Source of the DNA: an uncultured Deinococcales bacterium
GTDB taxonomy: Bacteria; Deinococcota; Deinococci; Deinococcales; JAAFIG01
Assembly (NCBI GenBank): GCA_964244895.1
Contig: CAXTKV010000049.1
Span: 1 to 26,541, forward strand
Reading direction: 5' to 3'
DNA: 26,541 nucleotides
Positions 457-25,938 of this stretch are shown piece by piece. The position numbers and the translations under genes are program-made. The number at the start of each line of letters is the position of its first letter. Within the stretch, counting starts at the first letter, position 1. Under the pieces are notes generated by a model. It did not search any database, was not told the DNA's origin, and saw nothing but the letters and a program-made list of their open reading frames with translations.

Positions 457-501
457 ACCGTCCCACACGGTGTTCGCACTCGAGAGACCGTGAGGGACGG
501 T
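457..501. repeat. Paired ACCGTC-N3-GACGGT palindromes (30 bp apart)
   Basis: accgtcccacacggt at 457 and accgtgagggacggt at 487, followed by GTTCTCGAG. Confidence 0.85.
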
Positions 502-625
502 GTTCTCGAGCAGGGCGACCCCTCGTGATGGGCGAAAAACGGGCTGAATGCCAGCTCCCGGATCAAGTTGGGGGAGGCAAAAGGCGAAGATATGGGTGTG
601 GCGGGGCGGGTACTGCTCATGGAAC

Positions 626-665
626 GCCGTCCCGGACGCATTCTAAGATATGCGTCGTGGACGGT
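626..665. repeat. Paired palindromes (25 bp apart)
   Basis: gccgtcccggacgca at 626 and tgcgtcgtggacggt at 651. Confidence 0.8.
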
Positions 666-761
666 GTTTCTCGAGGAACTCGCGCGATCTACACCGAGCG
701 ACGGGCTCAATCGTGAAGACGATTTCTGGATTTTCACAGAACACACCGTGGACAGTGGGAA

Positions 762-767
762 TAGGCT
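762..767 (+). promoter_or_regulatory. -10 box of leaderless promoter (S8 protease)
   Basis: TAGGCT 6 nt before ATG 774, no Shine-Dalgarno. Confidence 0.65.
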
Positions 768-773
768 CTTCTC

Positions 774-3029
774 ATGAACGGCATTCGTCTCACGGGTTTT
801 CTCGCACTTTTTGTCGGTCTGGTGCTCGGTCTGAGCGGCACCAGCGCCCAGCAAAGCAGGCTCGAGCCGAAACTGGCGCAACGGATTCGGGCGCAACCGA
901 AGGCGCTCTTCGACGTGGTGATCCGCTTCGACAAGGTCGCGCCACCGATCGGCACGCCGCGCGCGGAGGTCATCAAGTACCTGCGCGGCGATCTGGGGCG
1001 GCAACTGACGATCATCAACGCGGTCATCGCGCCCTACGGCCTCCGGCTCGCGCCGGACGAAAAAGAATCCTTGTGGCTGGATTCCAGCGTGGCCGTGCGC
1101 CTGCCCGGTCAGGCCATCGAGGTGATTTCCGCCGTGGCCAACGGCGTGGACGTGGTTTTTGAGAACTTCAAGGTGCGCATCCCGAAGGTCGTGGCGCAAT
1201 CCGCCGCCAGCGCACCGACCGGCACGCCGTGGCATTTGAACGCCATCGGTGCGAACGCCACCCGCGACGCGGGCTTGCGCGGCGCGGGCGTGCGCGTCGG
1301 GCACCTGGACACCGGCATCGATCCGAACCACCCGGAGTTGGCGGGCAAGATCCTGGCCTTCGCGGAGTTCGACGCCAACGGCAACCGCGTGCCGAACGCG
1401 CAAGCCAGGGACACGACTGGTCACGGCACGCACACGGCGGGCCTGATCGTCGGTAGCAAGGTCGGGGTCGCGCCGGACGCCAGAATCCTGTCCGCGATGG
1501 TGCTGCCGAACGGCGAGGGCACCTTCGCGCAGGTGATCGGCGGGATGCAATGGGTGCTCGATCCGGACAACAACGCCGCCACCGACGACGGCGCGAAGAT
1601 CGTCTCGATGTCGCTCGGGCTGCCCGGCCAGTACGACGCCTTCATTCCCGCCGTGCGCAACATGGTTCGCGCCGGGGCGCTGCCGGTTTTTGCGGCGGGC
1701 AACAGCGGCCCGGCGGCGGGTTCGATCAACTCGCCCGGCAATTTACCCGAACCCTTGACGGTCGGTGCGATCGATCAGAACAGTGCCCTGGCGTCCTTCT
1801 CGAGCCGAGGCCCCGTAACCTGGGGCGCACCGATCAACGCGAGCTTCACCAAGCCCGACGTGGTCGCGCCCGGCGTGGGCATCACCTCGCTCGCGCCCGG
1901 TGGGGGCTACGCGGCGCTCTCTGGCACGTCCCAGGCCGCACCGATCGCGGCGGGGGCTGCGGCGGTCTTGCGAGCCGCCAAACCCGGCGCGGACTGGCAG
2001 ACCATCAAGGACGCCATTCGGGACGGCGCTCGAGGATTGGGCGGCGATCAGAACGGCGTGGGACGCGGGTTGGTCAACCTTCAGGGAGCGCTCGAGAAGC
2101 TGGGCGTCAGCGTCGAGGCCAAACCGCCACCCGCACCGCCAGCCCCGCAGCCCGCGCCACCCGCCAGCCCGCCACCGGCCAGCCCACCGCCCGCCAGCCC
2201 GCCACCCGCGAGCCCGCAAACCCCACCAGCCGCCAGTCCTCCTCCGACCAGCCCACCAGCCGCAAACGCGCCGACCGCCAGTTCCGGCGCGCTGATCCGC
2301 GAGATCGTGGATGCGCCCGCCGACGGCGTGCTGCGCGGCGTGCTCGATCCCGGCCCGAAGGTCCTGGTCGGACAACCGATTCAAAGCATCGAGATCAGGT
2401 TGCTCGACGCGCAAGGCAAGGTCGTCTACACCCAGACCGAACGCGGCGACCCGTACTGCTTCGCGGGCGACAAGGACGGCAAGTGCGACCCGTTCGACAC
2501 GCGCAAGATTCCGGACGGGCGCTACACGCTTTCCCTGAAAGTCACCACGCCGGACGGCAAGGTTCAGGAATTCCGGGGTTCCGTCCAGGTCGCCAACGGC
2601 GGTCAGCCCGCATCCTCGACCAAGCTTGAGCGTCCGCCCGGACTGCTGTTCAAACCCGGCGCGCTCGAGAACGCCTCCAACCTGCCCGACACGAACGCCT
2701 TCGAGAACGAGACCGGCGGCCTGTTTTCCAGCGGCTCCAAAGCCCGCTTCCGCCTGCCCGGAACCGTCAAGAAGGGACGCTACGAGATCAACGTGCGCGC
2801 CCGAGGTCAGGCCTTTCAGGGCTGGCCGGAGTTGGAGCTTCGAATCGACGGCAAATCGGTCGGTAAGTTGACGGTCAACAACGACGGGTACGCGCTGAAA
2901 TCCTTCGGAACCTTCGAGCTGAAACCCGGCATGCTCTTAGAAATAGTCTTCACCAACGACGCGTACGACGGCGCGGCGGAGAAGGATCGGAACGTCTTCG
3001 TGGACGTGCTGAACTTGCAACCCCGATAA
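774..3029 (+). CDS. Secreted S8 (subtilisin-like) serine peptidase with Pro-rich linker, Ig-like domain and C-terminal CBM60-like module
   Basis: Signal peptide. Triad motifs LDTG, HGTHTAG and GTSQAAP, plus oxyanion AAGNSG. PPASP repeats. C-terminal FTND...DRNVFVD resembles Ca-dependent CBM60. Confidence 0.92.
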   Translation: MNGIRLTGFLALFVGLVLGLSGTSAQQSRLEPKLAQRIRAQPKALFDVVIRFDKVAPPIGTPRAEVIKYLRGDLGRQLTIINAVIAPYGLRLAPDEKESLWLDSSVAVRLPGQAIEVISAVANGVDVVFENFKVRIPKVVAQSAASAPTGTPWHLNAIGANATRDAGLRGAGVRVGHLDTGIDPNHPELAGKILAFAEFDANGNRVPNAQARDTTGHGTHTAGLIVGSKVGVAPDARILSAMVLPNGEGTFAQVIGGMQWVLDPDNNAATDDGAKIVSMSLGLPGQYDAFIPAVRNMVRAGALPVFAAGNSGPAAGSINSPGNLPEPLTVGAIDQNSALASFSSRGPVTWGAPINASFTKPDVVAPGVGITSLAPGGGYAALSGTSQAAPIAAGAAAVLRAAKPGADWQTIKDAIRDGARGLGGDQNGVGRGLVNLQGALEKLGVSVEAKPPPAPPAPQPAPPASPPPASPPPASPPPASPQTPPAASPPPTSPPAANAPTASSGALIREIVDAPADGVLRGVLDPGPKVLVGQPIQSIEIRLLDAQGKVVYTQTERGDPYCFAGDKDGKCDPFDTRKIPDGRYTLSLKVTTPDGKVQEFRGSVQVANGGQPASSTKLERPPGLLFKPGALENASNLPDTNAFENETGGLFSSGSKARFRLPGTVKKGRYEINVRARGQAFQGWPELELRIDGKSVGKLTVNNDGYALKSFGTFELKPGMLLEIVFTNDAYDGAAEKDRNVFVDVLNLQPR
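2124..2262 (+). repeat. 15-bp coding tandem repeats (PPASP)n linker
   Basis: ccgccacccgccagc-like units encoding PAPPASPPPASPPPASPPPASP. Confidence 0.85.
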
Positions 3030-3038
3030 CTCGAGAAT

Positions 3039-3078
3039 ACCGTCCCACACGCGAATCGCTGAGGGCGTTCTGGACGGT
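3039..3078. repeat. Paired palindromes (25 bp apart)
   Basis: ctcgagaat-accgtcccacacgcg at 3039 and ggcgttctggacggt-gttctcggg at 3064. Confidence 0.85.
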
Positions 3079-3150
3079 GTTCTCGGGATGGAGGTCTCGA
3101 GCGGGCGATGCTGAACGTCTTGCAAAAGTCTGGAAAACAGGCTGACGCGA

Positions 3151-3213
3151 GGGCAACCATCAAGGTTGCCCCTACAGGACAGGATTTTGTAGGGGTAGGG
3201 CTTGTCCCTACCC
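3151..3213. repeat. GTAG-family REP doublet (REPIN-like)
   Basis: GGGCAACC-atcaa-GGTTGCCC-CTAC (3151-3175) and GTAG-GGGTAGGG-cttgt-CCCTACCC (3189-3213), in inverted orientation. Confidence 0.75.
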
Positions 3214-3250
3214 TTCCCTCGAGACGTGGCCGACCGCCTTCGCAGGAGGT

Positions 3251-3835
3251 CTATCGTTGCGCGTTGAATCCGCCCAGCAGCATCACGCTGAACGCGTCCG
3301 CGACCTCGCGGGCGGAAAGGCGACCTCGAGGGCTGAACCAGTGGTACGCCCAGTTCGCGCTCGAGAGGGACAGTACGGCGGCCAGCTTCACGTCCAGGTC
3401 GGCGCGGAATTCTCCGGCCCTGACGCCTTCGATCAGGATGTCGCGGAAGACGCGTTCGATCCGGTCGCGGCGCTCACCGATGACCTCGAGCTTGTCTGGG
3501 GAAAGGTGCTTCCATTCGTGAAAGAACACGGTCGCCCAGTCCAGGTTGCGCGCGACCACGTCCATGTGGGCTTCCAGGGCCTGCCGGAGTTTCTTGGATG
3601 GCGATTGCCTGGAATGGCGGATCGGCTCGAGGGCCGCGTCGAACTCGTCCGCCGCGCGGTTGACGATCTCCCAGAGGAGTTCCTCCTTGCCCGCGATGTG
3701 CGCGTACAGGCTGCCGCCCTGCACGCCCAGCGCCCGCGCCAGGTCGCGCATCGAGGTGGCGTGGTAGCCGACCTCGGAGAACAACCGTCCTGCGGTGCGG
3801 TAGATCTGTTCCTTGCGGCTGAGGGTTTCGTCCAT
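3251..3835 (-). CDS. paaR: TetR-family regulator, Thermus PaaR-like
   Basis: HTH GYHATSMRDLARALGVQGGSLYAHI and ATVFFHEWKHLSP resemble T. thermophilus PaaR as recalled, not searched. Start moved to MDETLS, with TAGGAT 8 nt upstream. Confidence 0.75.
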   Translation of the reverse strand: MDETLSRKEQIYRTAGRLFSEVGYHATSMRDLARALGVQGGSLYAHIAGKEELLWEIVNRAADEFDAALEPIRHSRQSPSKKLRQALEAHMDVVARNLDWATVFFHEWKHLSPDKLEVIGERRDRIERVFRDILIEGVRAGEFRADLDVKLAAVLSLSSANWAYHWFSPRGRLSAREVADAFSVMLLGGFNAQR

Positions 3836-3850
3836 CAGTGGACATCCTAG

Positions 3851-3864
3851 CAAACGCTCCTTCG
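3851..3864. promoter_or_regulatory. Candidate PaaR operator (autoregulation)
   Basis: CAAACGCTCCTTCG has one mismatch to the recalled Thermus PaaR consensus CNAACGNNCGTTNG and lies next to the -10 box at 3844-3849. Confidence 0.45.
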
Positions 3865-3882
3865 GGCACGAACAAAGAGAAC

Positions 3883-3922
3883 ACCGTCCAGCACGCAAAT
3901 CACGAAATGCGTCTGGAACGGT
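3883..3922. repeat. Paired palindromes (25 bp apart)
   Basis: gagaac-accgtccagcacgca at 3883 and tgcgtctggaacggt-gttctcgag at 3908. Confidence 0.85.
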
Positions 3923-3961
3923 GTTCTCGAGGCGAGGGCGTTTTCGCGAAGGGCGCGAGGT

Positions 3962-5824: not shown

Positions 5825-5987
5825 AGCCTCGAGTCTAGGAATGTTTGGGCGCATTGAGAAGGGTCAAAGATACGCGCTCAATCGGGTGGCAGGCTGGAAT
5901 CTTGCACGGAAACCCGAGAACAATCGTCTAGGGCAGACTCGAGCCCGAAACACAGACCACCATCATTCCGCTCGAGATTTCGGCGGC

Positions 5988-6038
5988 GCCGTCCCGGACG
6001 CAAATTCCTTCATCCAGAAGAACACCGTGCTGGACGGT
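5988..6038. repeat. Paired palindromes (36 bp apart)
   Basis: gccgtcccggacgca at 5988 and agaagaac-accgtgctggacggt-attcttct at 6024. Confidence 0.85.
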
Positions 6039-6113
6039 ATTCTTCTGGGGTTCGGTTTCAAAGTGCCGATTATTTCAAAGTCAACGTTCAGAATCGCGCC
6101 TTACACTCAGCCC

Positions 6114-6929: not shown

Positions 6930-6946
6930 GTCCGGCTCGAGACATC

Positions 6947-6974
6947 AGGGCACCGCTTTGGCGGTGTCCTTTTT
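6947..6974 (+). terminator. Rho-independent terminator
   Basis: AGGGCACCGC-tttg-GCGGTGTCCT followed by a T tract. Confidence 0.85.
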
Positions 6975-7016
6975 GGTCGTGTTTGATCGAAATGGTGTTT
7001 TTCACCCGAAGAAAAA

Positions 7017-7072
7017 CCCGTGCAGGACGGCATAAACAAGCGTTCAAGATCAGATCTCGCGTCTCTGACGGT
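7017..7072. repeat. Paired palindromes (41 bp apart, degenerate)
   Basis: cccgtgcaggacggc at 7017 and cgcgtctctgacggt-gttc at 7058. Confidence 0.65.
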
Positions 7073-7320
7073 GTTCGCGCATTTCTCGAATGGGCATCGA
7101 GGATGGTGCGGCGCGTTCAGGTGAACACCGCCAACCCGACTCCTCGAGATTCGAGCGACCTTCCAAATGATCCCAAAGCAGGTGCATTATGAGGCTGCTG
7201 CTTTTGTTTGAGCAAGTAATGCGCATCCCGCAAAGTCCATGCAGCACGCCGCGAAAGCTGACACAGACCGAATAAAACCCGTAAGAGTTTCGTCAATCGC
7301 AGAGTGCTTACCTAGAGCGT

Positions 7321-9600
7321 ATGAAGCCTCCGACCGCACCACAACCGCACCGACTGCGTTCACCGGGCCAACCAGAATCGAACCACAAAAACCACCAGCA
7401 AGGCATCGCGCTGGTGGCCGCGCTGATCACCATGCTGGCCGTGACCGCGATGATCGTGGTCGTCAGCAGCCTGACCATGCGCGACACCAGACTGGCCGCC
7501 AACGAAGTCAGAACCACCCGACTGACGCAACTCGCGGACGGCCTCAGCGACCGGGCGCGACTGATGGTCATTCAAAGCTACAAGAATTCCAAACTGAGCA
7601 TTCCCGCCTGGCTGGACAAGGTTTCACCCACCCGCGACACGGCGGGCAGCGCGGTCAGCCCCGACACCGGTGAGGCCACAGTCGCGCCGCTGGCGGGCAA
7701 GCACGCTGGCACGCTCGACGGCGCGACCGTCCGATGGCAGATCATCGACGTTCCAGCATCCACGGTGGCCGCAGCCTGGGTGCAACTCGCCGCCACCGCC
7801 GACGACGGTGCGGGCGGACGGCAAACCGTGACCCGCAAGGTGCAGTTCGGTCAGCGCAGCATCTTCGACCTGGCGCTCCTGACCAAGACCGTCAACTGCA
7901 TGTTCTGCCACATGAACGTTAACGGCGACATCGGTTCCTACGGCTTCCTGCGCCCCGGCTGGGGCAACGAGGGCGTAGACGGTCAGGGCAGCGGCGGCGG
8001 TTCCAACATCAACGGTTCGGTTTACGTCGCTCCGAGCGGAGATACGGCAGTGCCCACCAACGTGACCGCAGACGGCACGAGCGGCACACTCAACGACACG
8101 GGCGTGAGCGGAGCCATCAACACCAACTACGTCGGCGACAAGATGCCGACCGACGCGAGCAACAACCCGCAGTTTCCCGGCCTGGATCGCGCGCTGGCCA
8201 GAAGCAGCGCCAACGGTTCGATCACGGGCGGCCAGATCAAAAGCGTGCCGACCGGAGGTTCTTACCTGACCGCCAGCACCGCCTCGAGCATCTCGAAAAT
8301 CTACGACGGCAACCTGGTGCTGGTCGGCACGAGCGCCAACCCGGTCGTGATCAACCGCGATATTTACGTCAGCGGCGACGTGGTGATCAAGGGCGTCATC
8401 AAGGGACGCGGTGCAATCTACGCCGGACGCAACCTCTACGTGGTCGGCAACCTGACCAACGCCAACAAGGCCGATAAACCCGGAGTCGGCGTCTGCGCCA
8501 GCACCACAGATGTCAACGTCTGCGCCAGGGCCAACATCGCGGCGGGCAAGGATGAAGTGCGCCTGGCCGCCGGGAACAACATCATCCTGGGCGACTGGAC
8601 GGAAAAGGACGCGACGGGCAGCAAACAGAGCGTCAGGGACGTGCAGAGCGCCGATTACTTCCGCAACCAGTTCGGACTGGACGCGGGCACGCCCAAGTAC
8701 GTCAAGAAGGGCACCAGCGAGGAACTGAGCTTCGACGGCACGAATTACATCGATGCGCTCGGCAATACGGTCAGCGCCAGCCTGGTCAAGACCTTCGGCA
8801 GCGGCTCGAGCGACCCTTACGTGCCGCTGATGGCCCCTGGGGCGACCGACACGAGCGGCAATTTCAGCCAGTGGATGTCCGACGCGGATTACCAGACGCT
8901 CTTGGGACAGGAAAGCATTCCGTACAACACCTGGCGCACGGAGATCAACGGTTACAGCGTCAACGGCACGGCGCTGACGGGAGGCTCGACGACTCGCAAG
9001 ACCGCGATCACGACGCAACTCGTGGCGGCGGGCCTGCCGGTCACCGCTTCCGGCGGCTCGAACAGCGCCTCGACCATCGCCTCGAAGATCGTGAGCGGCA
9101 CGACCGGACAGTTCCAGTATTCCGGAACCGACAAGAACGGTCAGTCTGTCTCCGGTGTCGCCTACTTCGACGGTGGCAGCCTGCGCGTGGCCGTCAACGA
9201 GGCCAGAAATTACAAGACCGAAACCACGCAACTGGACGCGTTCCTGTACTCGAACAGCCGGATCGCGGGCAAGCTTTCGCCGCGCGGCGGGTACACCAAC
9301 GGCGGCATGATCTCGCGCGAGATAGGCGTGCTGGCACCAGGAAAAAATTACGGTTCGGACTGGTGGATCAATTCGATGTCGCAAAGCGTGCGCGACAACT
9401 ACAACAAGTGCAACACCGGCTCCAGGCCGACCGACAGCGCCGTTGACGCCGCCACCAGCGGTACGGATTGCAGCTACTCGATCAACTACGATTACCGCCT
9501 GAAGAACGGCGGGTACGGCTTCAACCTGATCTCCGGCACGACCGGCGCGACCAGCGACTGGCAATACGACGTGGACGGCACCAAGGCGGTCACACCGTGA
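7321..9600 (+). CDS. Large PilX/ComZ-like type IV pilin-domain protein (tip adhesin candidate) with CxxCH motif
   Basis: Class III signal QQG|IALVAALITML lacking Glu5, as in PilX/GspK. Beta-solenoid-like segment (DIYVSGDVVIKGVIKGRGAIYAGRNLYVVGNL). CMFCH at 7897-7911. Confidence 0.8.
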   Translation: MKPPTAPQPHRLRSPGQPESNHKNHQQGIALVAALITMLAVTAMIVVVSSLTMRDTRLAANEVRTTRLTQLADGLSDRARLMVIQSYKNSKLSIPAWLDKVSPTRDTAGSAVSPDTGEATVAPLAGKHAGTLDGATVRWQIIDVPASTVAAAWVQLAATADDGAGGRQTVTRKVQFGQRSIFDLALLTKTVNCMFCHMNVNGDIGSYGFLRPGWGNEGVDGQGSGGGSNINGSVYVAPSGDTAVPTNVTADGTSGTLNDTGVSGAINTNYVGDKMPTDASNNPQFPGLDRALARSSANGSITGGQIKSVPTGGSYLTASTASSISKIYDGNLVLVGTSANPVVINRDIYVSGDVVIKGVIKGRGAIYAGRNLYVVGNLTNANKADKPGVGVCASTTDVNVCARANIAAGKDEVRLAAGNNIILGDWTEKDATGSKQSVRDVQSADYFRNQFGLDAGTPKYVKKGTSEELSFDGTNYIDALGNTVSASLVKTFGSGSSDPYVPLMAPGATDTSGNFSQWMSDADYQTLLGQESIPYNTWRTEINGYSVNGTALTGGSTTRKTAITTQLVAAGLPVTASGGSNSASTIASKIVSGTTGQFQYSGTDKNGQSVSGVAYFDGGSLRVAVNEARNYKTETTQLDAFLYSNSRIAGKLSPRGGYTNGGMISREIGVLAPGKNYGSDWWINSMSQSVRDNYNKCNTGSRPTDSAVDAATSGTDCSYSINYDYRLKNGGYGFNLISGTTGATSDWQYDVDGTKAVTP

Positions 9601-10067
9601 GCCGCCAGCAGCACCGCGCCATGAGCGTGCCGGAGGCGCCGATCAAGACGCTCGCTCGCTCCCCGCTGCTGTGGGTTTCCATCGGCGGATTGCTGCTCGC
9701 GGGGGCCGTGATGTTCGTTCCGAAATCAGCCGCAGTCCTGTTGCAAACCCCGAGCGTGCCCGCCGCGCTGGTCAACCGCGCCACGGCGACCGACGCCGCA
9801 CCATCGAACCCCATCACCGCCAGCGCGACCCCGAGCGCAATCTCGAGCGCGACCCCCGCCAGACCGTCGAGCGCGCCCCAGATCGCCTCGAAGCTGCCCA
9901 GCCAGATCACGCCGGACGAGATCTCGAGGATCGATGGCGGCCCGGTTCCGACCCTGCACTTCACGGACGGCTCGAGCATGATCGTGGACACGTCGACCCG
10001 CAGCCAACTTCAGGCGGGCGTGCAATTCCGGCTCGGCTACTCGAGAGGAGGCAACAATGCGCCGTGA
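9597..10067 (+). CDS. Hypothetical single-TM protein in pilin operon (156 aa)
   Basis: GTGA overlap with upstream stop. TM helix LLWVSIGGLLLAGAVMFV, then an Ala/Pro/Ser linker and small C-terminal domain. Overlaps the next gene. Confidence 0.7.
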   Translation: MSRQQHRAMSVPEAPIKTLARSPLLWVSIGGLLLAGAVMFVPKSAAVLLQTPSVPAALVNRATATDAAPSNPITASATPSAISSATPARPSSAPQIASKLPSQITPDEISRIDGGPVPTLHFTDGSSMIVDTSTRSQLQAGVQFRLGYSRGGNNAP

Positions 10068-10503
10068 TGGGGGCTTCACGCTGCTCGAGATGCTGATCGT
10101 GCTGGGGGTCTCCGGGATTCTGATGGGCATCGCCAGCCCGATATTCTCCGGCTACCAGCAGGGGCTTCGGATGCGCGAGGTCAACAACGCCGTCGCGCAG
10201 ACCCTTCAGGAAGTCGCGGCCTGCGCGCTGCGCTCCAACACGTCCATCACGGTCACGTTCACGCTGAACAGCGCGGCGGCACTGAGCGTCCCGAGCGGCT
10301 GCCTGGCGCAAACCTTCGCGCTCGAGAACAACGCCAAGATCACGTCCGTGACCAGCAATTCGGTCGCGCTCAGCCCACTGAGCGTCGTTTTTACCGCCCG
10401 AGGCTGGCCCAACGTGAACGCCCCGGTGGTCATCGCGACCCAACTCGGAAGCCGCACGGGAACCATCAGGCTGCTGTTGAGCGGAAAGACGGTCATCCAA
10501 TGA
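10057..10503 (+). CDS. Minor pilin, FimT/GspH-like
   Basis: MRRDGG|FTLLEMLIV N-methylation motif, VVFTARG motif, SD AGGAGG. Confidence 0.9.
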   Translation: MRRDGGFTLLEMLIVLGVSGILMGIASPIFSGYQQGLRMREVNNAVAQTLQEVAACALRSNTSITVTFTLNSAAALSVPSGCLAQTFALENNAKITSVTSNSVALSPLSVVFTARGWPNVNAPVVIATQLGSRTGTIRLLLSGKTVIQ

Positions 10504-10916
10504 AATACCAGCGCCAGCAAGCCTTCACCTTTCTTGAGGTCGTGATCGCGTTGGCGATCCTGGGCATCGCCGTGATCGGCGCGTCGTTCGTGCCCGCGTT
10601 GCGGGTCGGTCGCAGCAGCGACGTGCGCACCTACGCCAGCAACGTCGGCAAGGAAGTCATGGAAACCTACCGCAGCCTCTGGAAAGACCCGGCGGCGTTC
10701 CAGGCCGCGACCGCACCGAGCTTGCCGACTGGTCTGCGTTACGGTTGCACCGTTCCAACCCCGGTCGTGAGCTCGTTCGGTTTCGACTCGAGCCTGGCGC
10801 TGGTGGCGGTGTCCGGCAGTTCACCGTTGGCGGTGCAGCGCGTGCAGGTCAGCGTGCAGTGCGCGAACGCGCCCACGATTCAACTCACCACGGAAATCGG
10901 GAATCCGACGCCATGA
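10500..10916 (+). CDS. Minor pilin, PilV/GspI-like
   Basis: QQA|FTFLEVVIALAIL, ATGA overlap, two Cys. Confidence 0.88.
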   Translation: MKYQRQQAFTFLEVVIALAILGIAVIGASFVPALRVGRSSDVRTYASNVGKEVMETYRSLWKDPAAFQAATAPSLPTGLRYGCTVPTPVVSSFGFDSSLALVAVSGSSPLAVQRVQVSVQCANAPTIQLTTEIGNPTP

Positions 10917-11728
10917 AGACCATGCCCGCAAACGCTAAAGGCTCGAGGAACACCAGTCAGAGCGGCTTCACGCTGGTCGAATTGCTGATCTCGATGGCGA
11001 TTCTGGGGGTGATCCTGACGGTCACATCGAGCATCCTGCAGGTCAACCAGAAAGGCGTCAACGCCCAGCAATCCCGCACCGCCAGCACGGGCGATGCTCG
11101 AGCCGCCATGACCCGCATCAGCGAGCAACTGGCGCAAGCGGCCTACATCTACCCTTCGGGCATCACCATTTCCGTCAGTAGCGGCATCAAAGGTCAGGGC
11201 ACGATCAACCGCGTCACGACCGGTTCAAGCACGATCGCGGTGCTGGTGGCGGACGGCCTGAACAGCACGCCACCCAAGTACGACGGCGTGATCTTTTACG
11301 TGACCGCCCGCAGCAACTTCAGCACCGACCTGCCGAGCCTACCGAGCGGCACCTTCAGCCCGAACGTGCTGGTGCGCGCCGCCGTCGAAACGACCGGAGC
11401 CGGACTGATCACCTGGGCGGTCAACGCCACCCCTCCGACCACCTGGGGAGCCGCCGCCGTCGAGGGCGTGCTGGCCGATGGCATTGACACCTCGCGCACC
11501 AATCTGATGGCGTCCGCGACGTACTCTCCGGTGCTTGGGGTGGACGACACGTACTTCAGCAGCGGTCTCAGGGGCAACAACCCCGCGATCACCGCCGCCA
11601 ACGCCCTGATCACCTCGCTGGGTTTTCAGGTCGCGGTCAACATCGCACCGAATTCCGCGTCGTTCTCGAGCAGCGGCGGAACGGTGCTTCGGGGCTTGAT
11701 CACGGCCCGCAACGTTCCGCGATCCTGA
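10913..11728 (+). CDS. Minor pilin, PilW/GspJ-like (271 aa)
   Basis: SG|FTLVELLISMAIL. ATGA overlap places the start at 10913. Contains the EQLAQAAYIYP segment. Confidence 0.88.
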   Translation: MKTMPANAKGSRNTSQSGFTLVELLISMAILGVILTVTSSILQVNQKGVNAQQSRTASTGDARAAMTRISEQLAQAAYIYPSGITISVSSGIKGQGTINRVTTGSSTIAVLVADGLNSTPPKYDGVIFYVTARSNFSTDLPSLPSGTFSPNVLVRAAVETTGAGLITWAVNATPPTTWGAAAVEGVLADGIDTSRTNLMASATYSPVLGVDDTYFSSGLRGNNPAITAANALITSLGFQVAVNIAPNSASFSSSGGTVLRGLITARNVPRS

Positions 11729-11762
11729 ACGCGCGATCCCGAAGAGATGAGATCTCGAGAAG

Positions 11763-11812
11763 ACCGTCTAGGACGGTCTTCTTTTTGTGTTGAAAAGACT
11801 GTGCTGGACGGT
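11763..11812. repeat. Paired palindromes (35 bp apart); first may double as terminator
   Basis: agaag-accgtctaggacggt-cttct-tttt at 11763 and actgtgctggacggt-gttc at 11798. Confidence 0.88.
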
Positions 11813-11865
11813 GTTCTTAACTCGAGCACTCAGCATCTCGAGAACCCAGCACCGGAGCGAAAATC

Positions 11866-13140
11866 TCAATCGCTCGAGACGCGCCGGATGTACAGCACGC
11901 TGCCGAGCGCCACCAGCGTGAACAAACCGGTCAGCATCACGATCCCGTCCACGTGCAAATCGTTCACGAACAACCCGCCGACCGCCCCGCCGATCAGGTT
12001 GCCGCCCGCCAGGAAGATGCTGTACAAGCCCACCACCACGCCGCGATCCTCCGGGAAGTCCTCGGAGATGTCCGCCAGGTACGCCAGCGCGACCGGCGTG
12101 AAGCCCGCCTGAAAGAACGCGCCGATCATCAAGCCCACGAACCAGACCTGCGTGGGCAGCCCGAGCGCCCAGAACGCGTCCGGGTGGTTGAGCGTGTACA
12201 GGCAGAACGTCAACCAGATCAGCCCGAAGGCGCTGTTCAGCATCGGCGCGGTGCGCCGCCCGGATGACCTGGAACCGAAGAACAACCCGGCCAGGAAGGC
12301 CAGTGCGAAGCCGCCCAAGGCGTTCGAGAGCTGCGGCCCGGAGAGCGTCCCGACCAGCGCCTGACCGGGCACCGTGTGGTTGTTCGGCCCGGCGTACAAC
12401 TGGTTTTGCAGGTGAACCGTCCACAGCCCGACGATCGCGGTCGCGGCGATCCAGGCGGGCATGAAGCGCAGCAAGCGCCGATTCGAGAGCGCCCGCGCGT
12501 AATCCTGCCAGGTGCGGCGCTTCTGGATGCGCAAACCGATCGGTGGCAGCGCGAACGCGAACACGATCGCGCCCACGACGTACACGACCGCCAGCATCGG
12601 GTAGCTCGAGGTTCCCAGCGCGTCCCAGACGCGCGGCCCGAGCACGGTGCTGCCCAGGGCCAGCCCGAGCAGCGTGACGATCTCGAACAGGCCCATCACG
12701 CGCGAGCGGTGCTTTGAGCCGTCCGTCAGATCGGAGAGGTAGCCGAGCGTGGCGGGCGTGGCGATGGCCGCCGAGATACCTTCCAGGACGCGAATCGCGA
12801 ACAGCACCGCCACACCCGTGGAAAGCGGGTAGAGCAAGAGCGCGATTGCCCCCAGGAACGGAGCCGCGACCATCAATCCTTTTCGGCCCCAGCGGTCGCT
12901 GAGCGCCCCGAAGACGGGCGCGAGCAGCAACTCCGTGGCGTAATAACCCGCCGCGACCAGCCCGACGCTCTCGCCGCGCTGACCGAGCGCCCCGAGGTAC
13001 AAGCCCAGACTGGAAGTGGCCAGCCCACCGGCCAAGCGCAGCAACAGCGTTCCCCCGAGGACGGATGCGATGGCGCGGAAGAACAGTTTTGGATCTCGTT
13101 CGCTGATGTGGACGGGTTCGGTGTTCGGTTCGCTGATCAA
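11866..13140 (-). CDS. MFS transporter
   Basis: About 12 hydrophobic segments, motif A GALSDRWGRK, and RVLEG. TTG start at 13140 with SD AAGGAAGG. Confidence 0.9.
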   Translation of the reverse strand: MISEPNTEPVHISERDPKLFFRAIASVLGGTLLLRLAGGLATSSLGLYLGALGQRGESVGLVAAGYYATELLLAPVFGALSDRWGRKGLMVAAPFLGAIALLLYPLSTGVAVLFAIRVLEGISAAIATPATLGYLSDLTDGSKHRSRVMGLFEIVTLLGLALGSTVLGPRVWDALGTSSYPMLAVVYVVGAIVFAFALPPIGLRIQKRRTWQDYARALSNRRLLRFMPAWIAATAIVGLWTVHLQNQLYAGPNNHTVPGQALVGTLSGPQLSNALGGFALAFLAGLFFGSRSSGRRTAPMLNSAFGLIWLTFCLYTLNHPDAFWALGLPTQVWFVGLMIGAFFQAGFTPVALAYLADISEDFPEDRGVVVGLYSIFLAGGNLIGGAVGGLFVNDLHVDGIVMLTGLFTLVALGSVLYIRRVSSD

Positions 13141-13228
13141 CGGGAAACCTTCCTTGTGGCCTGGACATCTTAACCGCATCCTTCGCGGTCAATCTGGAAC
13201 AACGCTCCCGTCGGGTGGCGCGAGCAAA

Positions 13229-13277
13229 ACCATCTTAGACAGCCTCCCAATTCTCGAGAGGCAACGTCCTGGACGGT
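13229..13277. repeat. Paired palindromes (34 bp apart, degenerate)
   Basis: accatcttagacagc at 13229 and aacgtcctggacggt at 13263. Confidence 0.65.
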
Positions 13278-13281
13278 CTTT

Positions 13282-15179: not shown

Positions 15180-15234
15180 CGATTCAGTTTACGCCTTCTA
15201 TCACGAGGTCCCGATCGCGCATCAGTCAAAGAAG

Positions 15235-15284
15235 ACCGTCCTGGACGGTGTTCTCGAGTATTTAAAATCACCGTCCCAGACGGT
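15235..15284. repeat. Paired palindromes (35 bp apart)
   Basis: gaag-accgtcctggacggt-gttctcgag at 15235 and accgtcccagacggt-cttc at 15270. Confidence 0.92.
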
Positions 15285-15340
15285 CTTCCCAGCAAAGCCA
15301 TCTCGAGTACACGCCCGGAGCACGACGGGATTTCATCACC

Positions 15341-17491: not shown

Positions 17492-17531
17492 ACCGACCCG
17501 CACATCGTCAAGGAATGCCGTTCCAGACGGT
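17492..17531. repeat. Paired palindromes (25 bp apart, first degenerate)
   Basis: accgacccgcacatc at 17492 and gccgttccagacggt at 17517. A further degenerate copy at 17589. Confidence 0.65.
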
Positions 17532-17699
17532 GTCTCGAGATCAACAACCTTCTCGAGCGTGCGAAACGCGAAGCGCACCGACGCGAACGCCTTCCGGGAC
17601 GCCCGAAGATTCTCTGTCCGCACGACGATCATTAATCCTGCGGCACTTTCAATTTGCGCCCTCGAACTCGATAAAATGAGCGCGTCCCGGCACAAGAAC

Positions 17700-17749
17700 A
17701 CTGTCCAGGACAGCGTTCTTTGGAATCGGGAATGACCGTCCCAGACGGT
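17700..17749. repeat. Paired palindromes (35 bp apart)
   Basis: aagaac-actgtccaggacagc-gttctt at 17700 and accgtcccagacggt at 17735. Confidence 0.88.
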
Positions 17750-17819
17750 CTTTCCGACCTCACAAAAAATCCTCCCGAGCCCGTGCCCGAGAGGATCGTT
17801 CGATGCTGACTTCTGAGGT

Positions 17820-18482: not shown

Positions 18483-18698
18483 GGTTTCACCTGTTTCACG
18501 TGTCTGTCTTCTGTTCCCCGGTTCATATCGTGTGCAGTCTGCCACGCAGGTTCTGACAGAACAATCACGCTTCCGGGTGCGCGAGTCTTGGCTCTGCGAG
18601 CCGTCTGAGCGCTGATGTTCGGGTTATACCAATCCCAAGATGAGTTTCCGCTCGAGATTCCCGCCTCGACCAGATCGGTTCGGTGGCATAAAGAGAGC

Positions 18699-18749
18699 AC
18701 CGTCCCAGACGGCGTTCCTGAGTGAAGGAAATATAGCGTGCTGGACGAT
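18699..18749. repeat. Paired palindromes (36 bp apart)
   Basis: accgtcccagacggc at 18699 and agcgtgctggacgat-gttctc at 18735. Confidence 0.8.
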
Positions 18750-18810
18750 GTTCTCGGTGACACACCAGAGGTTCTCGGGGACGCGCCCGAGAATGGAATT
18801 TCGGTTCAAT

Positions 18811-21323: not shown

Positions 21324-21354
21324 TGGCACGGTTTTTCAAACCGTGCCAGACGGC
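21324..21354. repeat. Hairpin overlapping a single palindrome copy
   Basis: TGGCACGGTTT-ttc-AAACCGTGCCA hairpin, with accgtgccagacggc at 21340. Confidence 0.65.
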
Positions 21355-21548: not shown

Positions 21549-21581
21549 TCGAGAAATACCGTTCTGAACGGCATTTCTCGA
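21549..21581. repeat. Extended single palindrome copy bounded by TCGAG arms
   Basis: tcgagaaat-accgttctgaacggc-atttctcga. Confidence 0.8.
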
Positions 21582-21599
21582 GATAGCGCGGGCTATGTC

Positions 21600-22310: not shown

Positions 22311-22488
22311 GAGACACTGACCTCACGGAGCTGCGCTGATTTTTGTGGTCGCCCTGAGCCTACCGCACGGCCCCATCAGAAATAAAGTGATGGGGGACGC
22401 TCATTCCAAGCGTTCGGGTTGCGCCCCGAGAAACCCACGTTCTTCATGATTCTGATCGGTCAGGATTTAGACCGGCTTAAGTGGGGTG

Positions 22489-22544
22489 GCAGGCTGCAAG
22501 CCGCAAGCCGCAAGTTGCAGGCCGCAAGCCTCGAACCGCAAGGA
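22489..22544 (+). repeat. Heptamer tandem array (GCAAGCC)x8
   Basis: gcaggct gcaagcc gcaagcc gcaagtt gcaggcc gcaagcc tcgaacc gcaagga. Confidence 0.85.
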
Positions 22545-22560
22545 AAGTCATTTCGAGAAG

Positions 22561-22610
22561 ACCGTGCTGGACGCAGCCTCGAGGGCTCACAAAAACGCGT
22601 CCTGGACGGT
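22561..22610. repeat. Paired palindromes (35 bp apart)
   Basis: gaag-accgtgctggacgca at 22561 and cgcgtcctggacggt-gttc at 22596. Confidence 0.85.
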
Positions 22611-22657
22611 GTTCTAAAAAGATCGCTCGAGATTCGCGCCCTGCGTACAATAGTTCT

Positions 22658-22706
22658 CGCTCGAGGCCCTGGGTTCTGGGCTCGAGGCTTGCGGCTCACG
22701 GCTTCG
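22658..22706 (-). repeat. Degenerate inverted heptamer array (GGCTTGC-like)x7
   Basis: cgctcga ggccctg ggttctg ggctcga ggcttgc ggctcac ggcttcg. Confidence 0.65.
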
Positions 22707-22763
22707 TTTCCCGTCAATCTTTTGCCATGCACGTCCCGCACCGTGGGTGTTAGGCTCGGTCGC

Positions 22764-23696
22764 ATGGACGGTGTGGACAGGGTTCACGGCGCTTCGCAGC
22801 GCCTCAAGAGTGCGCTCTCGAGGTCGTTGATCGGCCAGGAGGACGTGATCGAATCCCTGATCGCGGTGGCGCTGGCGGGCGGTCACGCGCTTCTGGAAGG
22901 CGTGCCGGGCTTGGGCAAAACCTGGCTGGCGCAGAATTTTGCCAAGGCCGCCAACCTGGAATACCGACGCATTCAGTTCACGCCGGATCTGATGCCCGCA
23001 GACGTGACGGGCACGCAGGTGATCGAGTCTTCGGGCGGCAGCCTGACGTACCGTTTCCAACAGGGGCCGCTCTTCACGCAGTTGCTGCTGGCCGACGAGA
23101 TCAACCGCGCCACGCCCAAAACGCAATCGGCGCTTTTGGAAGCCATGCAGGAAGGGGCAGTCACGACGGCGGGCGAACGGCGCGAGTTGCCGCAACCGTT
23201 CATGGTGCTGGCCACGCAGAACCCCCTCGAGATGGAGGGCACCTATCCCCTGCCCGAGGCGCAGCTGGATCGGTTCCTGGCGCGGATCGAATTCAAACGC
23301 CCATCGCCGGAAACGCTGAAAAAAGTGCTCGAGGCGGGTCAGGTTTCGCCGTCGCCGTTGGCGCTCGATCCGGGCGAGTTGCTCGAGTTGCGCGGCATCG
23401 TCCGAGACGTGCCCGTCTCGCAACCGATGCTCGAGACGATCGTGGCCCTGACCGAGGCCACCCACCAGCACAAGGCCGTGCGCTACGGGATTTCTCCGCG
23501 CGGGGCGCAGGCGCTCTTAGGCATGGCGCGGGCGTTCGCGTTGATGGACGCCCGCCCGTTCGTGTCCAGAGAAGATGTCGTGCGGGCCGCGCCGCTGGCC
23601 GCCAACCACCGATTGATCCTGGGCTTCGAGGCGGAACTCGAGGGGATCACGCCTTCCAACGTGCTGAAATCCGTGCTGGAGGGGGTCAAGGCGTGA
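22764..23696 (+). CDS. moxR: MoxR-family AAA+ ATPase
   Basis: Walker A GVPGLGKT, RIQFTPDLMPAD, LADEINRA and ATQNPLEMEGTYPLPEAQLDRF. TAGGCT 7 nt before ATG 22764. Confidence 0.93.
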   Translation: MDGVDRVHGASQRLKSALSRSLIGQEDVIESLIAVALAGGHALLEGVPGLGKTWLAQNFAKAANLEYRRIQFTPDLMPADVTGTQVIESSGGSLTYRFQQGPLFTQLLLADEINRATPKTQSALLEAMQEGAVTTAGERRELPQPFMVLATQNPLEMEGTYPLPEAQLDRFLARIEFKRPSPETLKKVLEAGQVSPSPLALDPGELLELRGIVRDVPVSQPMLETIVALTEATHQHKAVRYGISPRGAQALLGMARAFALMDARPFVSREDVVRAAPLAANHRLILGFEAELEGITPSNVLKSVLEGVKA

Positions 23697-23863
23697 TTCT
23701 GGCGGCGTTGATCTCGGCGGCGATCAGTTTTTTGCTGGACAGGCGTTTTTTTCAGGGCGACCAGCAGCGGATCTTCAAGGTCTTCGCCGTGTTCGTGTTC
23801 GCCTGGGGTGTGATCGGGGTGGGTTTCCGAATCCTCGGGCTGTCGCTGCTGCGCGCCGGATGA
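23693..23863 (+). CDS. 56-aa two-TM small membrane protein (not in ORF track)
   Basis: GTGA overlap with the moxR stop and SD GGAGG. Sequence MILAALISAAISFLLDRRFFQGDQQRIFKVFAVFVFAWGVIGVGFRILGLSLLRAG. Confidence 0.7.
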   Translation: MILAALISAAISFLLDRRFFQGDQQRIFKVFAVFVFAWGVIGVGFRILGLSLLRAG

Positions 23864-23895
23864 TCGAGCTCTTTCACATCGCCAATCTCGGGAAG

Positions 23896-23946
23896 ACCGT
23901 CTGGGACGGCGTTCTTCGTGAGCGCAGAGATGCCGTTCTGGACGGT
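23896..23946. repeat. Paired palindromes (36 bp apart)
   Basis: accgtctgggacggc at 23896 and gccgttctggacggt at 23932. Confidence 0.85.
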
Positions 23947-23954
23947 GTTTCCGC

Positions 23955-24677
23955 GTGAGCCTGCGCGGTTACCGCTTGGCTTCTCGAGCGACCGCTTTGC
24001 AGGGTGGGGATCGGCGCTCGAACCTGGTGGGGTCGGGCGGCGAATTCATGGATTACCGGGCTTACGAACCAGGCGATGAACCCCGGCACGTCGACTGGAA
24101 CGTCTACGCGCGCACGGGACGCTTGTTCACGCGCCAGTACCACGCGGAACGTTCCAGCCGCGTTTACGGGGCGCTGGATCGTTCGCTTTCGATGCAGGAA
24201 AAACACGATTTCAGCCTCGAGACGCTGCGCTTCTTGCGCACCTTCGCTCGGGCCGACACCTGGCTCGAGCGCGATCTAAACGGCCTGGCGGCGGGATTGG
24301 GGCGGTTGGCGTTGGAGCGTCCGGGCCTGGTGGTGCTGGTCACGGACGGTCTGGAACCTCTGAGTGCCGTTCGGGTCGGGCTCTCGAGTCTGGTCGCGCG
24401 CCGTTTCGACGTGTCGGTGGTTCAGGTCTTGTCGGCGGATGACCTCGAGCCGCCCAGCGGCGCGTGGCGCGTGCGCGACGCCGAGGACGGCCTGGAACGC
24501 GAGGTCGACGACGCGGCGCGGCGCGCATACCTTTCGCGCTTGGCGCGCCACCTGGAGTCTTTTGCGGCCTTGACGCGCGGTTTGGGGTTGCGCCACGTTC
24601 AGGTGCGTTCGGACGCGAACCGACTCGAGGTTTGGTCGCGTTTGCGGCGCGCCGGAATTCTCGAGCGCGGCGCGTGA
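23955..24677 (+). CDS. DUF58 domain protein (vWA-like, MoxR partner)
   Basis: GSGGEFMDYRAYEPGDEPRHVDWNVYART, LDRSLSM and LVTDG motifs. Confidence 0.9.
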   Translation: MSLRGYRLASRATALQGGDRRSNLVGSGGEFMDYRAYEPGDEPRHVDWNVYARTGRLFTRQYHAERSSRVYGALDRSLSMQEKHDFSLETLRFLRTFARADTWLERDLNGLAAGLGRLALERPGLVVLVTDGLEPLSAVRVGLSSLVARRFDVSVVQVLSADDLEPPSGAWRVRDAEDGLEREVDDAARRAYLSRLARHLESFAALTRGLGLRHVQVRSDANRLEVWSRLRRAGILERGA

Positions 24678-25117
24678 AAGCGGCCAACCCCGACCCGTGA
24701 ACCATGATGCTCGGGTGCGAGGCTGGTTTCGACACCAGCCCGAGGATACCGATTTACGCGTGTACAGCGATCTCGATTAGAGGTTGGCACTGTCGTTTTT
24801 CTCGGGATCGAAAGCAATCCAAGAACCGCCTCTCATGGATCTCAGGATCGATTCAACTCGTCTGCGAGGCTCGGAACCCGATTCAGGCTCCAATTCAGGC
24901 AGCGCGTAATGTGATCTACCCCTCACAAAAAACTCAGGGGCAGCGATAACTTCTCATCGAGCCGTTCTTCAGTCAGAAAATATCGGCCATATGAGATTCG
25001 TGTCTTCACCGGATCTTGATATTTTCGTGTATGGACTCAAGTTCAACTGGATCGGATTTCGTCCGACTCAGACGCAACACATCAGACCTTCACACTTTCT
25101 GGTGTGGACTTTTTCGC

Positions 25118-25146
25118 TTGACCTAGGCCATTCGGCTCAGCATACT
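25118..25146 (+). promoter_or_regulatory. Sigma-A promoter, leaderless
   Basis: TTGACC-17 nt-CATACT, then 7 nt to ATG 25154. Confidence 0.65.
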
Positions 25147-25153
25147 GACCCGC

Positions 25154-25837
25154 ATGCGTAGGAGCCTCGCACTTGTCATTGTCGCCACACTGACCTCATT
25201 CGCGCTGGGCTCTATGGCCTCGGCCAAATCGTATACGGTTCAGTCCGGCGATACCCTCTACGGCATCGCGCAGGCCAACAGCGTCACGATGGCGCGCGTG
25301 CTGATGCTCAACCCCGGTTTGAACGGCATGAACCTCAAGCCCGGTCAGAAGCTCGAGCTTCCCGACGACGCCAAACCCGCGACCGTCGCCACGACCGCAG
25401 CCAAGCCAACCCCGACAGCGACAGCCCCGACGGCGACAGCCCCGACCGCGCGCAGCATCACCCGCGCGTTGTCCAACGCGAACGTCACGCGCGCCGCCTA
25501 CAGGTACGTCGGTTCGCCTTACGTCTGGGGCGCGGCGGGCCCGCGCGCCTTCGATTGCAGCGGTTTCGTGATGCACGTGATGGCGCAATTCGGCGTCAAG
25601 TTGCCCCACTCGAGCCGCCTACAGGCGCAGATGGGCACCTTCGTTTCTCGCGGCAATCTGCAACCCGGTGACCTGGTGTTCTTCGCCACGCGCGGCGCGG
25701 GCATCTCGCACGTCGCGATTTACGTCGGCAACAACACCATCGTTCACGCGTCCACGCCGGGCACGGGCGTGATCGCCTCGAGCCTGAGCGAAAAATACTA
25801 CGCCGCCCGTTACGTCGGCGCGCGGCGCGTGCTCTAA
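25154..25837 (+). CDS. LysM + NlpC/P60 (C40) peptidoglycan endopeptidase
   Basis: Signal peptide, LysM YTVQSGDTLYGIA, (ATAPT)n linker, PYVWG...FDCSG, HVAIY and VHAS motifs. Confidence 0.94.
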   Translation: MRRSLALVIVATLTSFALGSMASAKSYTVQSGDTLYGIAQANSVTMARVLMLNPGLNGMNLKPGQKLELPDDAKPATVATTAAKPTPTATAPTATAPTARSITRALSNANVTRAAYRYVGSPYVWGAAGPRAFDCSGFVMHVMAQFGVKLPHSSRLQAQMGTFVSRGNLQPGDLVFFATRGAGISHVAIYVGNNTIVHASTPGTGVIASSLSEKYYAARYVGARRVL

Positions 25838-25856
25838 TTTCGGGTCTGATACCCGA

Positions 25857-25886
25857 GCCCGCGCTATCCAGCGCGGGTTTTTCTTT
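25857..25886 (+). terminator. Rho-independent terminator
   Basis: CCCGCGCT-atcc-AGCGCGGG followed by TTTTTCTTT. Confidence 0.85.
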
Positions 25887-25898
25887 GGATTCAGCGAC

Positions 25899-25938
25899 GC
25901 CGCCCTGGACGTAAATCAGAAACAGTGTCCCAGACGGT
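25899..25938. repeat. Paired palindromes (25 bp apart)
   Basis: gccgccctggacgta at 25899 and agtgtcccagacggt-gttctc at 25924. Confidence 0.75.

Follow-up and report, generated by a model that had tools for sequence, protein, structure and literature searches.

The 26,541-nucleotide contig CAXTKV010000049.1 of an uncultured Deinococcales bacterium (assembly GCA_964244895.1; this whole contig is hereafter the window) carries short palindromic repeats, most of them set in pairs at a few fixed distances. These repeats form a real, genome-wide family that is a member of no known family against which it was tested. Some protein probably reads the phased pairs on double-stranded DNA, be it inside the cell or in DNA uptake. 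Our preferred reading, for which these sequence comparisons give us somewhat less than even confidence, is that the pairs are sites for a putative cooperative homodimeric DNA-binding protein that would bend or organise DNA inside the cell. This reading and the rival explanations weighed below are not mutually exclusive.

A 23-bp matrix was trained on the source assembly (G000; 5.12 Mb in 328 contigs, 91% complete, with the window as its contig C49) and used for scans at thresholds of at least 12 or at least 14 bits, with the reversed genome as control. Units of at least 14 bits number 4,650 in the assembly, against 11 in the reversed genome. The core palindrome reported in a preliminary description of the window, ACCGTC-N3-GACGGT, is real: with at most one mismatch it occurs 11 times in the window, against 0.18 by chance, and 30 units reach 12 bits there, arranged as 12 pairs and 6 singles. 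The exact 15-bp core has 251 copies in the genome. The unit takes the form GAACACCGTCC-N-G(G/C)ACG, followed by a second arm that is either full or of a shorter form, and has a polarity, with one strong end and often one weak end. The inner half-sites had been described as decayed; they are a recurring distinct variant, beyond mere random decay. At 12 bits or more the genome holds 3,000 elements, comprising 1,893 pairs, 1,083 singles and 24 larger groups, with about two thirds of the elements paired. Twelve of the 15 pairs first listed in the window have both units at 12 bits or more at exactly the distance given; the sites at 25899 (9.9 bits) and 13229 (5.5 bits) are weak, and that at 17492 (−0.4 bits) is not supported.

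The distances between units are quantised. All pairs of units of at least 14 bits lying within 260 bp of each other were counted across the genome, giving a histogram that is not smooth, with peaks at 25–26 and 35–36 bp (19 pairs at 24 bp, 810 at 25, 125 at 26, 35 at 34, 541 at 35, 200 at 36 and 13 at 37) and minor classes at 30–31 bp (28 and 14 pairs, together 42) and 41 bp (20 pairs). Both the two spacing classes and the 30- and 41-bp outliers noticed in the window are therefore real classes genome-wide. The further peak guessed at 46 bp is absent: a single pair lies at that distance, each distance from 44 to 199 bp holds 0–6 pairs, and no longer periodicity was found in the genome beyond 42 bp. 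A repetitive extragenic palindromic (REP) sequence of the GTAG type, tried as a spacing control, gave just 26 neighbours, which is too few.

The preferred spacing depends on the orientation of the units. The polarity analysis took in 1,893 pairs, of which 1,012 have their strong halves outside and weak halves inside; 675 of these are at 25 bp, 244 at 35–36 bp and none at 30–31 bp. The reverse arrangement, with strong halves inside (27 pairs), has 16 at 30–31 bp, 8 at 33–34 bp and none at 25 or 35 bp, while 44 of the 53 pairs with four strong halves are at 35–36 bp and none at 25 bp. The preferred spacing moves half a helical turn when the polarity flips, as would be expected from two proteins touching on the double helix. 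The helical phasing first proposed stands as regards steps of one turn. At 10.5 bp per turn, the 25- and 35–36-bp classes correspond to 2.4 and 3.4 turns, which sets the two dyads on roughly opposite faces rather than on the same one. The spacers, earlier described as not conserved, hardly ever recur (in the 25 class 831 of 832 whole elements are unique, in the 35 class 563 of 563), yet retain positional base preferences.

Genes were called with a purpose-made simple caller (4,605 genes, 81% coding). The claim that the units are intergenic in every clear case fails genome-wide, with 398 of 4,942 units (8%) lying inside called genes, which take up 81% of its length; two window singles (2001 and 12778) are themselves genic. 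Intragenic sites of at least 18 bits number 99, against 13–16 in amino-acid-preserving shuffles, and those of at least 22 bits 54, against 2–6 in protein-preserving shuffles. Their density is about 10 times higher where the closest intergenic element lies over 1 kb away, an enrichment that survives a control for distance to the gene end (20, 25, 25 and 14 against 36, 26, 13 and 9; p = 4e-5, n = 84). Their partners keep the same distances as elsewhere, with 43 of 50 at 25–27, 30 and 34–36 bp.

Forty-one pairs lie within called genes, and 15 could be aligned to orthologs. Six of the 15 are within 3 residues of the ortholog length, five have element-sized extra length and four are intermediate or shorter. 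The pair in a 3-hydroxyacyl-CoA dehydrogenase (35–36 class) differs in length by 0 or −1 residue from five genomes; its spacer encodes the residues KFYDG, common to G003, its left unit differs from that genome mostly at synonymous positions, and residue changes are confined to its right unit. Conserved residues are kept across the pairs in PheT (length change 0) and an FAD oxidase (length ±2), and the NuoG pair replaces a loop of equal length, with no gap over the pair relative to G006. Where host residues are kept through the spacer, the pairs cannot be insertions. Among intragenic singles, 21 of 26 are within 1 residue of the ortholog, including sites of 31 and 32 bits; the weaker ones may be chance.

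Across the chromosome, elements are present in 494 of the 659 convergent gaps, 1,431 of the 2,942 tandem ones and 358 of the 676 divergent ones, and pairs lie at a median of 20–23 bp from stop codons. Gaps carry about one element regardless of their length (variance/mean 0.16–0.58 in bins of 40 or more gaps). Evenness was assessed on 144 contigs (3.55 Mb) of at least 12 kb with at least 0.5 units per kb, short and motif-poor contigs being excluded. The mean element spacing on these is 1,584 bp, and its coefficient of variation, 0.584, is below the 0.668 ± 0.013 obtained by permutation within gap type and length, so elements are spread more evenly than chance; random placement in free intergenic bases gives 1.31 ± 0.02, against 0.67 observed. 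Neighbours closer than 700 bp number 97 (162 ± 8 permuted), and those further than 4 kb apart 77 (104 ± 6). Density is near-uniform, at 0.93–1.20 units per kb in the middle half of 134 contigs and 1.13 on the dnaA contig, with no origin or terminus bias apparent where these positions could be judged only roughly on 328 contigs.

Plasmid-like and accessory DNA has few elements. The motif is almost missing from 23 contigs (396 kb), and the genes scanned on motif-poor contigs (108 of 215) encode, among others, a replication initiator and a coupling protein, Tn3 and insertion sequence (IS) transposases, integrases, CRISPR, BREX and sugar islands. Two units bracket a tRNA attachment site in G000, 119 bp apart. 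Two integrated elements of this genome (C52:4131-11075 and C32:187-6510) bear unpaired units, including the two flanking the tRNA. The hexamer CTCGAG behaves otherwise: it occurs 21,883 times in G000, inside and outside genes, against about 1,722 expected from base content, stays at about 2–8 per kb on the 25 motif-poorest contigs, and is found at 4–8 per kb in all family genomes sampled and 2–4 per kb at several loci of families f2 and f5. It is a HIP1-like, family-wide hexamer separate from the pairs, though it often extends the unit. Other palindromic hexamers are strongly avoided in G000 (CGGCCG 31 against 3,222 expected, CCCGGG 60 against 2,198 and CCGCGG 396 against 3,732).

Taken together, the quantised spacing, unique spacers, lack of any sign of RNA-level selection, polarity-linked shift, in-place pairs and even spread point to a protein that reads double-stranded DNA in phase, as first proposed. 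Each palindrome would be read by one homodimer. With strong ends outward, two dimers would touch only at 25–26 or 35–36 bp, and with strong ends inward contact would come at 30–31 and 34 bp. A site may pay most where no other lies within about 1 kb, with coverage every 1–2 kb favoured, and new sites would accumulate through point changes and through copying over short distances until they cover the chromosome. The putative architectural role would be akin to that of IHF at attachment sites and origins; IHF sites are asymmetric, and are found at attachment sites, at origins and inside small repeats.

Several observations weigh against this reading, and the reliance on a simple gene caller is a caveat to it. 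Those that bear on RNA are that each of the five window elements folded gives a long hairpin (z −2.7 to −7.9), that 25-class units covary with their partners (central base 0.54 against 0.40, z 10), and that in the 36 class G-U exceeds A-C on the transcribed strand (121 against 94). The long hairpins are expected, because any inverted repeat folds so. That the repeats are RNA hairpins ending or stabilising transcripts seems highly improbable to us, even given these folds, the 25-class covariation, the closeness to stop codons and the 494 of 659 convergent gaps occupied. Partner covariation is largely absent in the 35–36 classes, G000 has no arm-to-arm covariation within units, and spacers are no more self-complementary than shuffled ones. 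In the large classes G-U does not exceed A-C (364 against 408 in the 25 class, n = 311; 228 against 282 in the 35 class, n = 199), and the smaller 26 class is even (83 against 77). There is no U-tract or bias in transcription orientation, with T content equal on both sides, and no Rfam match in the window; the 358 of 676 divergent gaps occupied also count against hairpins, which leave helical spacing and mid-gene pairs unexplained. The earlier view that these are not RNA hairpins is borne out by the large classes, which give no sign of RNA-level selection.

Other observations indicate copying or insertion, which the preliminary description had missed. Five of the 15 aligned intragenic pairs come with the element-sized extra length noted above: the clearest, in a heavy-metal P-type ATPase, amounts to 17 extra residues relative to both ortholog and paralog, and other insert-like pairs to 18–25 residues in three linkers and 9–19 in one more. 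Neighbours within 3 kb resemble each other more than random elements do (z −4.1 and −4.5 in the 35 class, −3.6 and −3.3 in the 36 class, −2.3 and −1.8 in the 25 class), with no effect beyond 3 kb. Set against their orthologs in G006, of which about 1.3 Mb was examined, gaps that hold a pair are longer by a median of 70–78 bp (37 gaps), and those that hold no element differ by a median of 0 (98 gaps). In-place genic pairs, near-neighbour likeness and longer gaps together mean that sites arise both in place and via short-range copying or insertion.

This leads to an explanation that we consider unlikely, namely that the repeats are RAYT-less, REPIN-like non-autonomous elements: inverted doublets copied by a missing or lost nuclease and now eroded except at their ends. 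REP/REPIN doublets are inverted, with conserved length and variable spacer (PMC3116915), and REPs and REPINs are short palindromes near gene 3' ends, lineage-restricted, with occasional in-frame genic copies (PMC3116915, PMC11893778, PMC3733652). The family shares the inverted doublets, the conserved length and variable spacer, the position 20–23 bp from stops and a patchy lineage spread. Insert-like genic cases, longer orthologous gaps, a weak in-phase partner kept by 203 of 577 intergenic singles, a homologous young cassette in the genome G193 with a spacer resembling that of the 36 class, and a full 25-class pair on a mobile-looking contig of the genome G005 all fit it too. REPs are defined to include an unpaired GTAG or CGTC tag, the CGTC-tagged ones going with Ssn nucleases (PMC3733652), whereas here CGTC is located within the palindrome and no conserved unpaired tag stands beside the stem. 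No excess of flanking direct repeats of 2–9 bp, as left by target-site duplication, was found (13 boundaries, four classes), nor any young genome-wide subfamily of elements in G000, and gap expansions relative to G006 have no peak at element length (48 or 58 bp). Whole elements are only slightly closer to one another than Markov nulls (6.2 against 6.6–6.8 and 11.6 against 11.9–12.9 mismatches). Contigs about 90–94% alike span several elements at the same length, with no 48–59 bp skip in the best 15 of 108 joints; other repeat copies mask core differences in this comparison, and no inference on selection was drawn from it. REPINs are reported to be scattered at random over extragenic space (PMC3116915), at 91–323 per genome in one table (PMC8049555), against an even spread of about 1,900 pairs here. 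Pairs that retain host residues through the spacer cannot have been inserted, and a single-strand hairpin does not predict the polarity-linked half-turn shift.

The search for a partner protein bears on all of these readings. No Y1/RAYT gene (PF01797) was found in G000, where with 91% completeness and 328 contigs loss or non-assembly is possible, or in G193 (99% complete, about 240 contigs), against five of the seven other genomes searched. The lone PF01541 (GIY-YIG) hit in the incomplete G000 assembly sits in a 613-residue frame, with no small single-domain gene of the Ssn type. HU/IHF-family genes number three in G000, one in G193 and one to three elsewhere. That no partner protein was found, and that these counts single out neither G000 nor G193, tells against the cooperative-dimer reading. 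The genes of the window are ordinary and none is an evident partner of the motif, in keeping with the earlier remark that no cognate protein is visible there.

The distribution over genomes also tells against it, with an expansion in one of 364 phylum genomes and a small one in a second being odd for a core architectural system. The exact core has 0–6 copies in 40 relatives, and the 25-bp pair, present 860 times in G000, occurs 0–1 times in 18 family genomes. A 16-mer of the unit has 1,166 copies in G000, 10 in G193 and 0–3 in 362 other phylum genomes, which include the unpublished G327, a genome that no other result draws on; exact copies of the unit number 0–3 in each of 125 genomes of family f3. 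The pair pattern had 0 matches in metagenome contigs, 120 viral loci had matches but none a phased pair, and samples of 4.5–69 kb from nine family relatives, a small sample, held no analogous high-copy motif. G005 has one full 25-class pair (L170:1657-1705), on a contig with ParB, DnaB and IS genes; this genome is otherwise without the pair family, and its one pair may be transfer or misbinning.

G193 belongs to another family, f5 (probably Thermaceae), and has 107 near matches of the unit against 7 in controls. The 37 copies read there lie in a homologous cassette, some 85 bp long, that has heptamer arms and, 36 bp further along, a second copy matching by half; the cassettes stand mostly between ordinary genes. 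Neighbouring copies are often near-identical: a difference of at most 2 bases in 59 is seen for 7 of 27 pairs from the same locus and for 0 of 249 from different loci. The central spacer resembles G000 36-class spacers (5.69 against 4.07 ± 0.20 matches). No transposase is evident beside the copies in 150 kb, by blast to G000. This dispersed cassette family of at least 100 copies shares its loci (L312-L321, L332-L340) with further unrelated repeat families. In G000 itself spacers are nearly all unique, where two subfamilies of MITE (miniature inverted-repeat transposable element) would have homologous ones, and a cassette with homologous spacers occurs in G193, which suggests that a copied cassette may have come first. 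None of the three outcomes that the preliminary description had named as contrary to it (a smooth spacing distribution, homologous spacers, or a match to a described Deinococcota repeat family, with SNR/SRE compared by description alone) occurred in G000.

Five other f5 genomes, which lack the expansion, carry the unit two to six times, either in origin-like regions rich in iterons or next to a tRNA attachment site, and genome-wide counts are near control in the four f5 genomes tested. The unit is so placed in all seven such loci fetched; they belong to integrase-primase elements of one related family and so are not independent. Such elements (L322-L328; PrimPol, some with PolA) differ in their iterons but share the unit near their origin-like and attachment regions. 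A partner protein shared between the integrated elements and G000 was sought and rejected, since only integrases, PolA and host genes are in common. The presence of the unit at these regions and at the G000 tRNA site fits a factor acting within the cell. A more tentative extension of the cooperative-dimer reading is that a host DNA-bending factor had its site at a small number of origins and attachment sites of integrated elements, that a copied cassette then took this site up (the G193 stage), and that in the G000 lineage it grew into a self-completing dimer-of-dimer lattice with a period of 1.6 kb, under selection or drive strong enough to change residues in PheT and NuoG.

The even spread is also what an uptake-sequence-like signal could produce, where site-bearing DNA is favoured in uptake, donation or recombination and that bias alone spreads the site; we think this slightly less likely still than a REPIN-like origin. 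The mean spacing of 1,584 bp is near the one per about 1,500 bp of the composite DNA uptake sequence (DUS) of Neisseria (PMC2397512). DUS and uptake signal sequences (USS) are scarce on recently acquired DNA, lie at permissive coding positions and are gained by substitution or patch replacement (PMC2397512, PMC7811141, PMC1939737), as sites here are scarce on 396 kb of accessory contigs, over-represented in permissive gene parts and able to arise in the same ways. ComEC and ComEA are present across the family, and the palindromic HIP1 has been proposed as an uptake signal. However, DUS and USS are non-palindromic, 35–65% genic and in about 10% inverted pairs (PMC1939737), against 8% genic and mostly phased pairs here, and close pairs bring no gain in uptake (PMC7811141) but serve as terminators (PMC7811141, PMC1939737). 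Competence genes are equally present in the motif-free family (18/19 and 19/19 genomes), Thermus takes up DNA without apparent specificity (PMC6561018), and an uptake tag would not be expected to cluster where integrated elements have their origins and attachment sites. A packaging version finds no PF03237 terminase in G000. The ComEC frame of this genome (C24:16822-17604, 824 residues from a provisional start) is longer than in any other family genome searched, where it reaches at most 814.

The elements of the window, all without assigned strand, span the main classes. Pairs of the 25-bp class lie at 622–669 (cores 626 and 651; matrix scan), 3035–3082 (3039 and 3064), directly past a stop codon in a convergent gap, and 3879–3926 (3883 and 3908, 34 and 27 bits; matrix scan and folding). 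The 35-bp class is found at 11759–11816 (11763 and 11798) in a convergent gap, 15231–15288 (15235 and 15270, each perfect), 17696–17753 (17700 and 17735), where a related contig runs across without an element-sized gap, and 22557–22614 (22561 and 22596), amid inverted heptamer arrays. Those of the 36-bp class are at 5984–6042 (5988 and 6024) in a divergent gap, 18695–18753 (18699 and 18735) and 23892–23950 (23896 and 23932), within a MoxR-DUF58 gene run. One pair each belongs to the 30-bp class (453–505; cores 457 and 487, 23 and 20 bits; matrix scan) and the 41-bp class (7013–7076; 7017 and 7058, 14 and 19 bits). Units with weak partners are those at 13263 (22 bits; partner of 5.5 bits 34 bp leftward; 13225–13281) and 25924 (28 bits; partner of 9.9 bits 25 bp leftward; 25895–25942). 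Single units lie at 17513–17535 (20 bits), where the proposed partner at 17492 is unsupported, and, by matrix scan, at 21554–21576 (22 bits), 12774–12796 (18 bits) in an MFS transporter gene and 1997–2019 (14 bits) in a subtilase gene, the last of which may be chance.

Inverted heptamer arrays at 22485–22545 and 22670–22710 flank one of these pairs and resemble the G193 cassette arms. Among 506 gaps with a 35-class pair 21 contain such arrays, as do 7 of the 582 gaps that hold a 25-class pair and 10 of the 598 without, and as this is a minority of gaps only, they were rejected as a general part of the element. A second repeat family at 3146–3213 is of the GTAG type, a stem-loop with a GTAG end, and its start has 223 matches in G000, though no Y1 gene was found there. 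At 6945–6975 and 25850–25885, ordinary GC hairpins followed by T runs adjoin pairs, which suggests termination by separate elements. The stretch 7321–11728 encodes a PilX-like protein of 759 residues, a small frame and three pilin-like genes; it is the sole minor-pilin run matched by a pattern search, and no evidence links it to the motif. Homologs of the PilX-like protein (7321–9600) number 116, and some of them bear the name PilX or come from Thermaceae and Trueperaceae; by sequence it has no solved relative; none of 152 metagenome candidates reached through it gave a closer relative of the genome. Its locus may resemble the Thermus ComZ locus. The UbiD-family protein of the window is 76–81% identical to homologues in uncultured Deinococcales genomes.

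Abundant bacterial palindromic repeats are usually explained as RAYT passengers or RNA hairpins, and the G000 family fails several such tests. Its behaviour resembles that of a binding site that is worth more or less according to its distance from the next, with a geometry that can be read from its letters. With G193, it offers two evolutionary stages, and a route to ask how a repeat becomes a chromosome-wide signal. A role in uptake or donation would make it a signal, both palindromic and paired, from beyond the Neisseriaceae and Pasteurellaceae; an architectural role would make it a sequence-specific nucleoid lattice in a phylum known for compact nucleoids.

Among chromosome-organising systems, the sites of MatP (matS), SlmA (SBS), Noc (NBS) and ParB (parS) are palindromic and read by dimers on double-stranded DNA, as is proposed here. 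Those sites number tens per genome and are regionally biased towards the origin or terminus, unlike the thousands of units at near-uniform density in G000. The literature searched holds no description of the unit, sequence queries having matched one unrelated paper and supplementary repeat tables lying outside the search. Deinococcus has mosaic SNRs, with 295 copies in D. radiodurans, and the RDRM, a palindrome marking one regulon (PMC1978522; the comparison literature also includes PMC6006769). The family shares with SNR/SRE and RDRM the phylum and dispersed intergenic repeats, and with RDRM the palindrome; by description it differs in being neither mosaic nor tied to a single regulon, and in its near-absence from family f3. 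HIP1 of cyanobacteria is a hyper-abundant palindrome proposed for gene transfer or uptake (PMC13756078); it is 8 bp and single, unlike the present unit, and the CTCGAG excess is its closer parallel. MITEs differ through their target duplication, and internal homology is found in G193, but in G000 goes no further than positional preference and the likeness of near neighbours. With DUS/USS the family shares a density of one per 1–1.6 kb, a lack of strand bias, scarcity on acquired DNA and intragenic origin without insertion; it differs in its 23-bp palindrome, phased pairs without a terminator signature and 8% genic share. With REP/REPIN/BIME sequences and their RAYT (TnpA-REP) it shares the inverted doublet of fixed length and variable spacer, the intergenic bias to 3' ends, lineage restriction and occasional in-frame copies within genes, and it differs from REP/REPIN in that no tag, RAYT, Ssn or within-unit covariation was found, and in its even spread, polarity-linked classes and in-place pairs. 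The family has a REPIN-like anatomy and an uptake-sequence-like distribution, but fails some defining tests of each.

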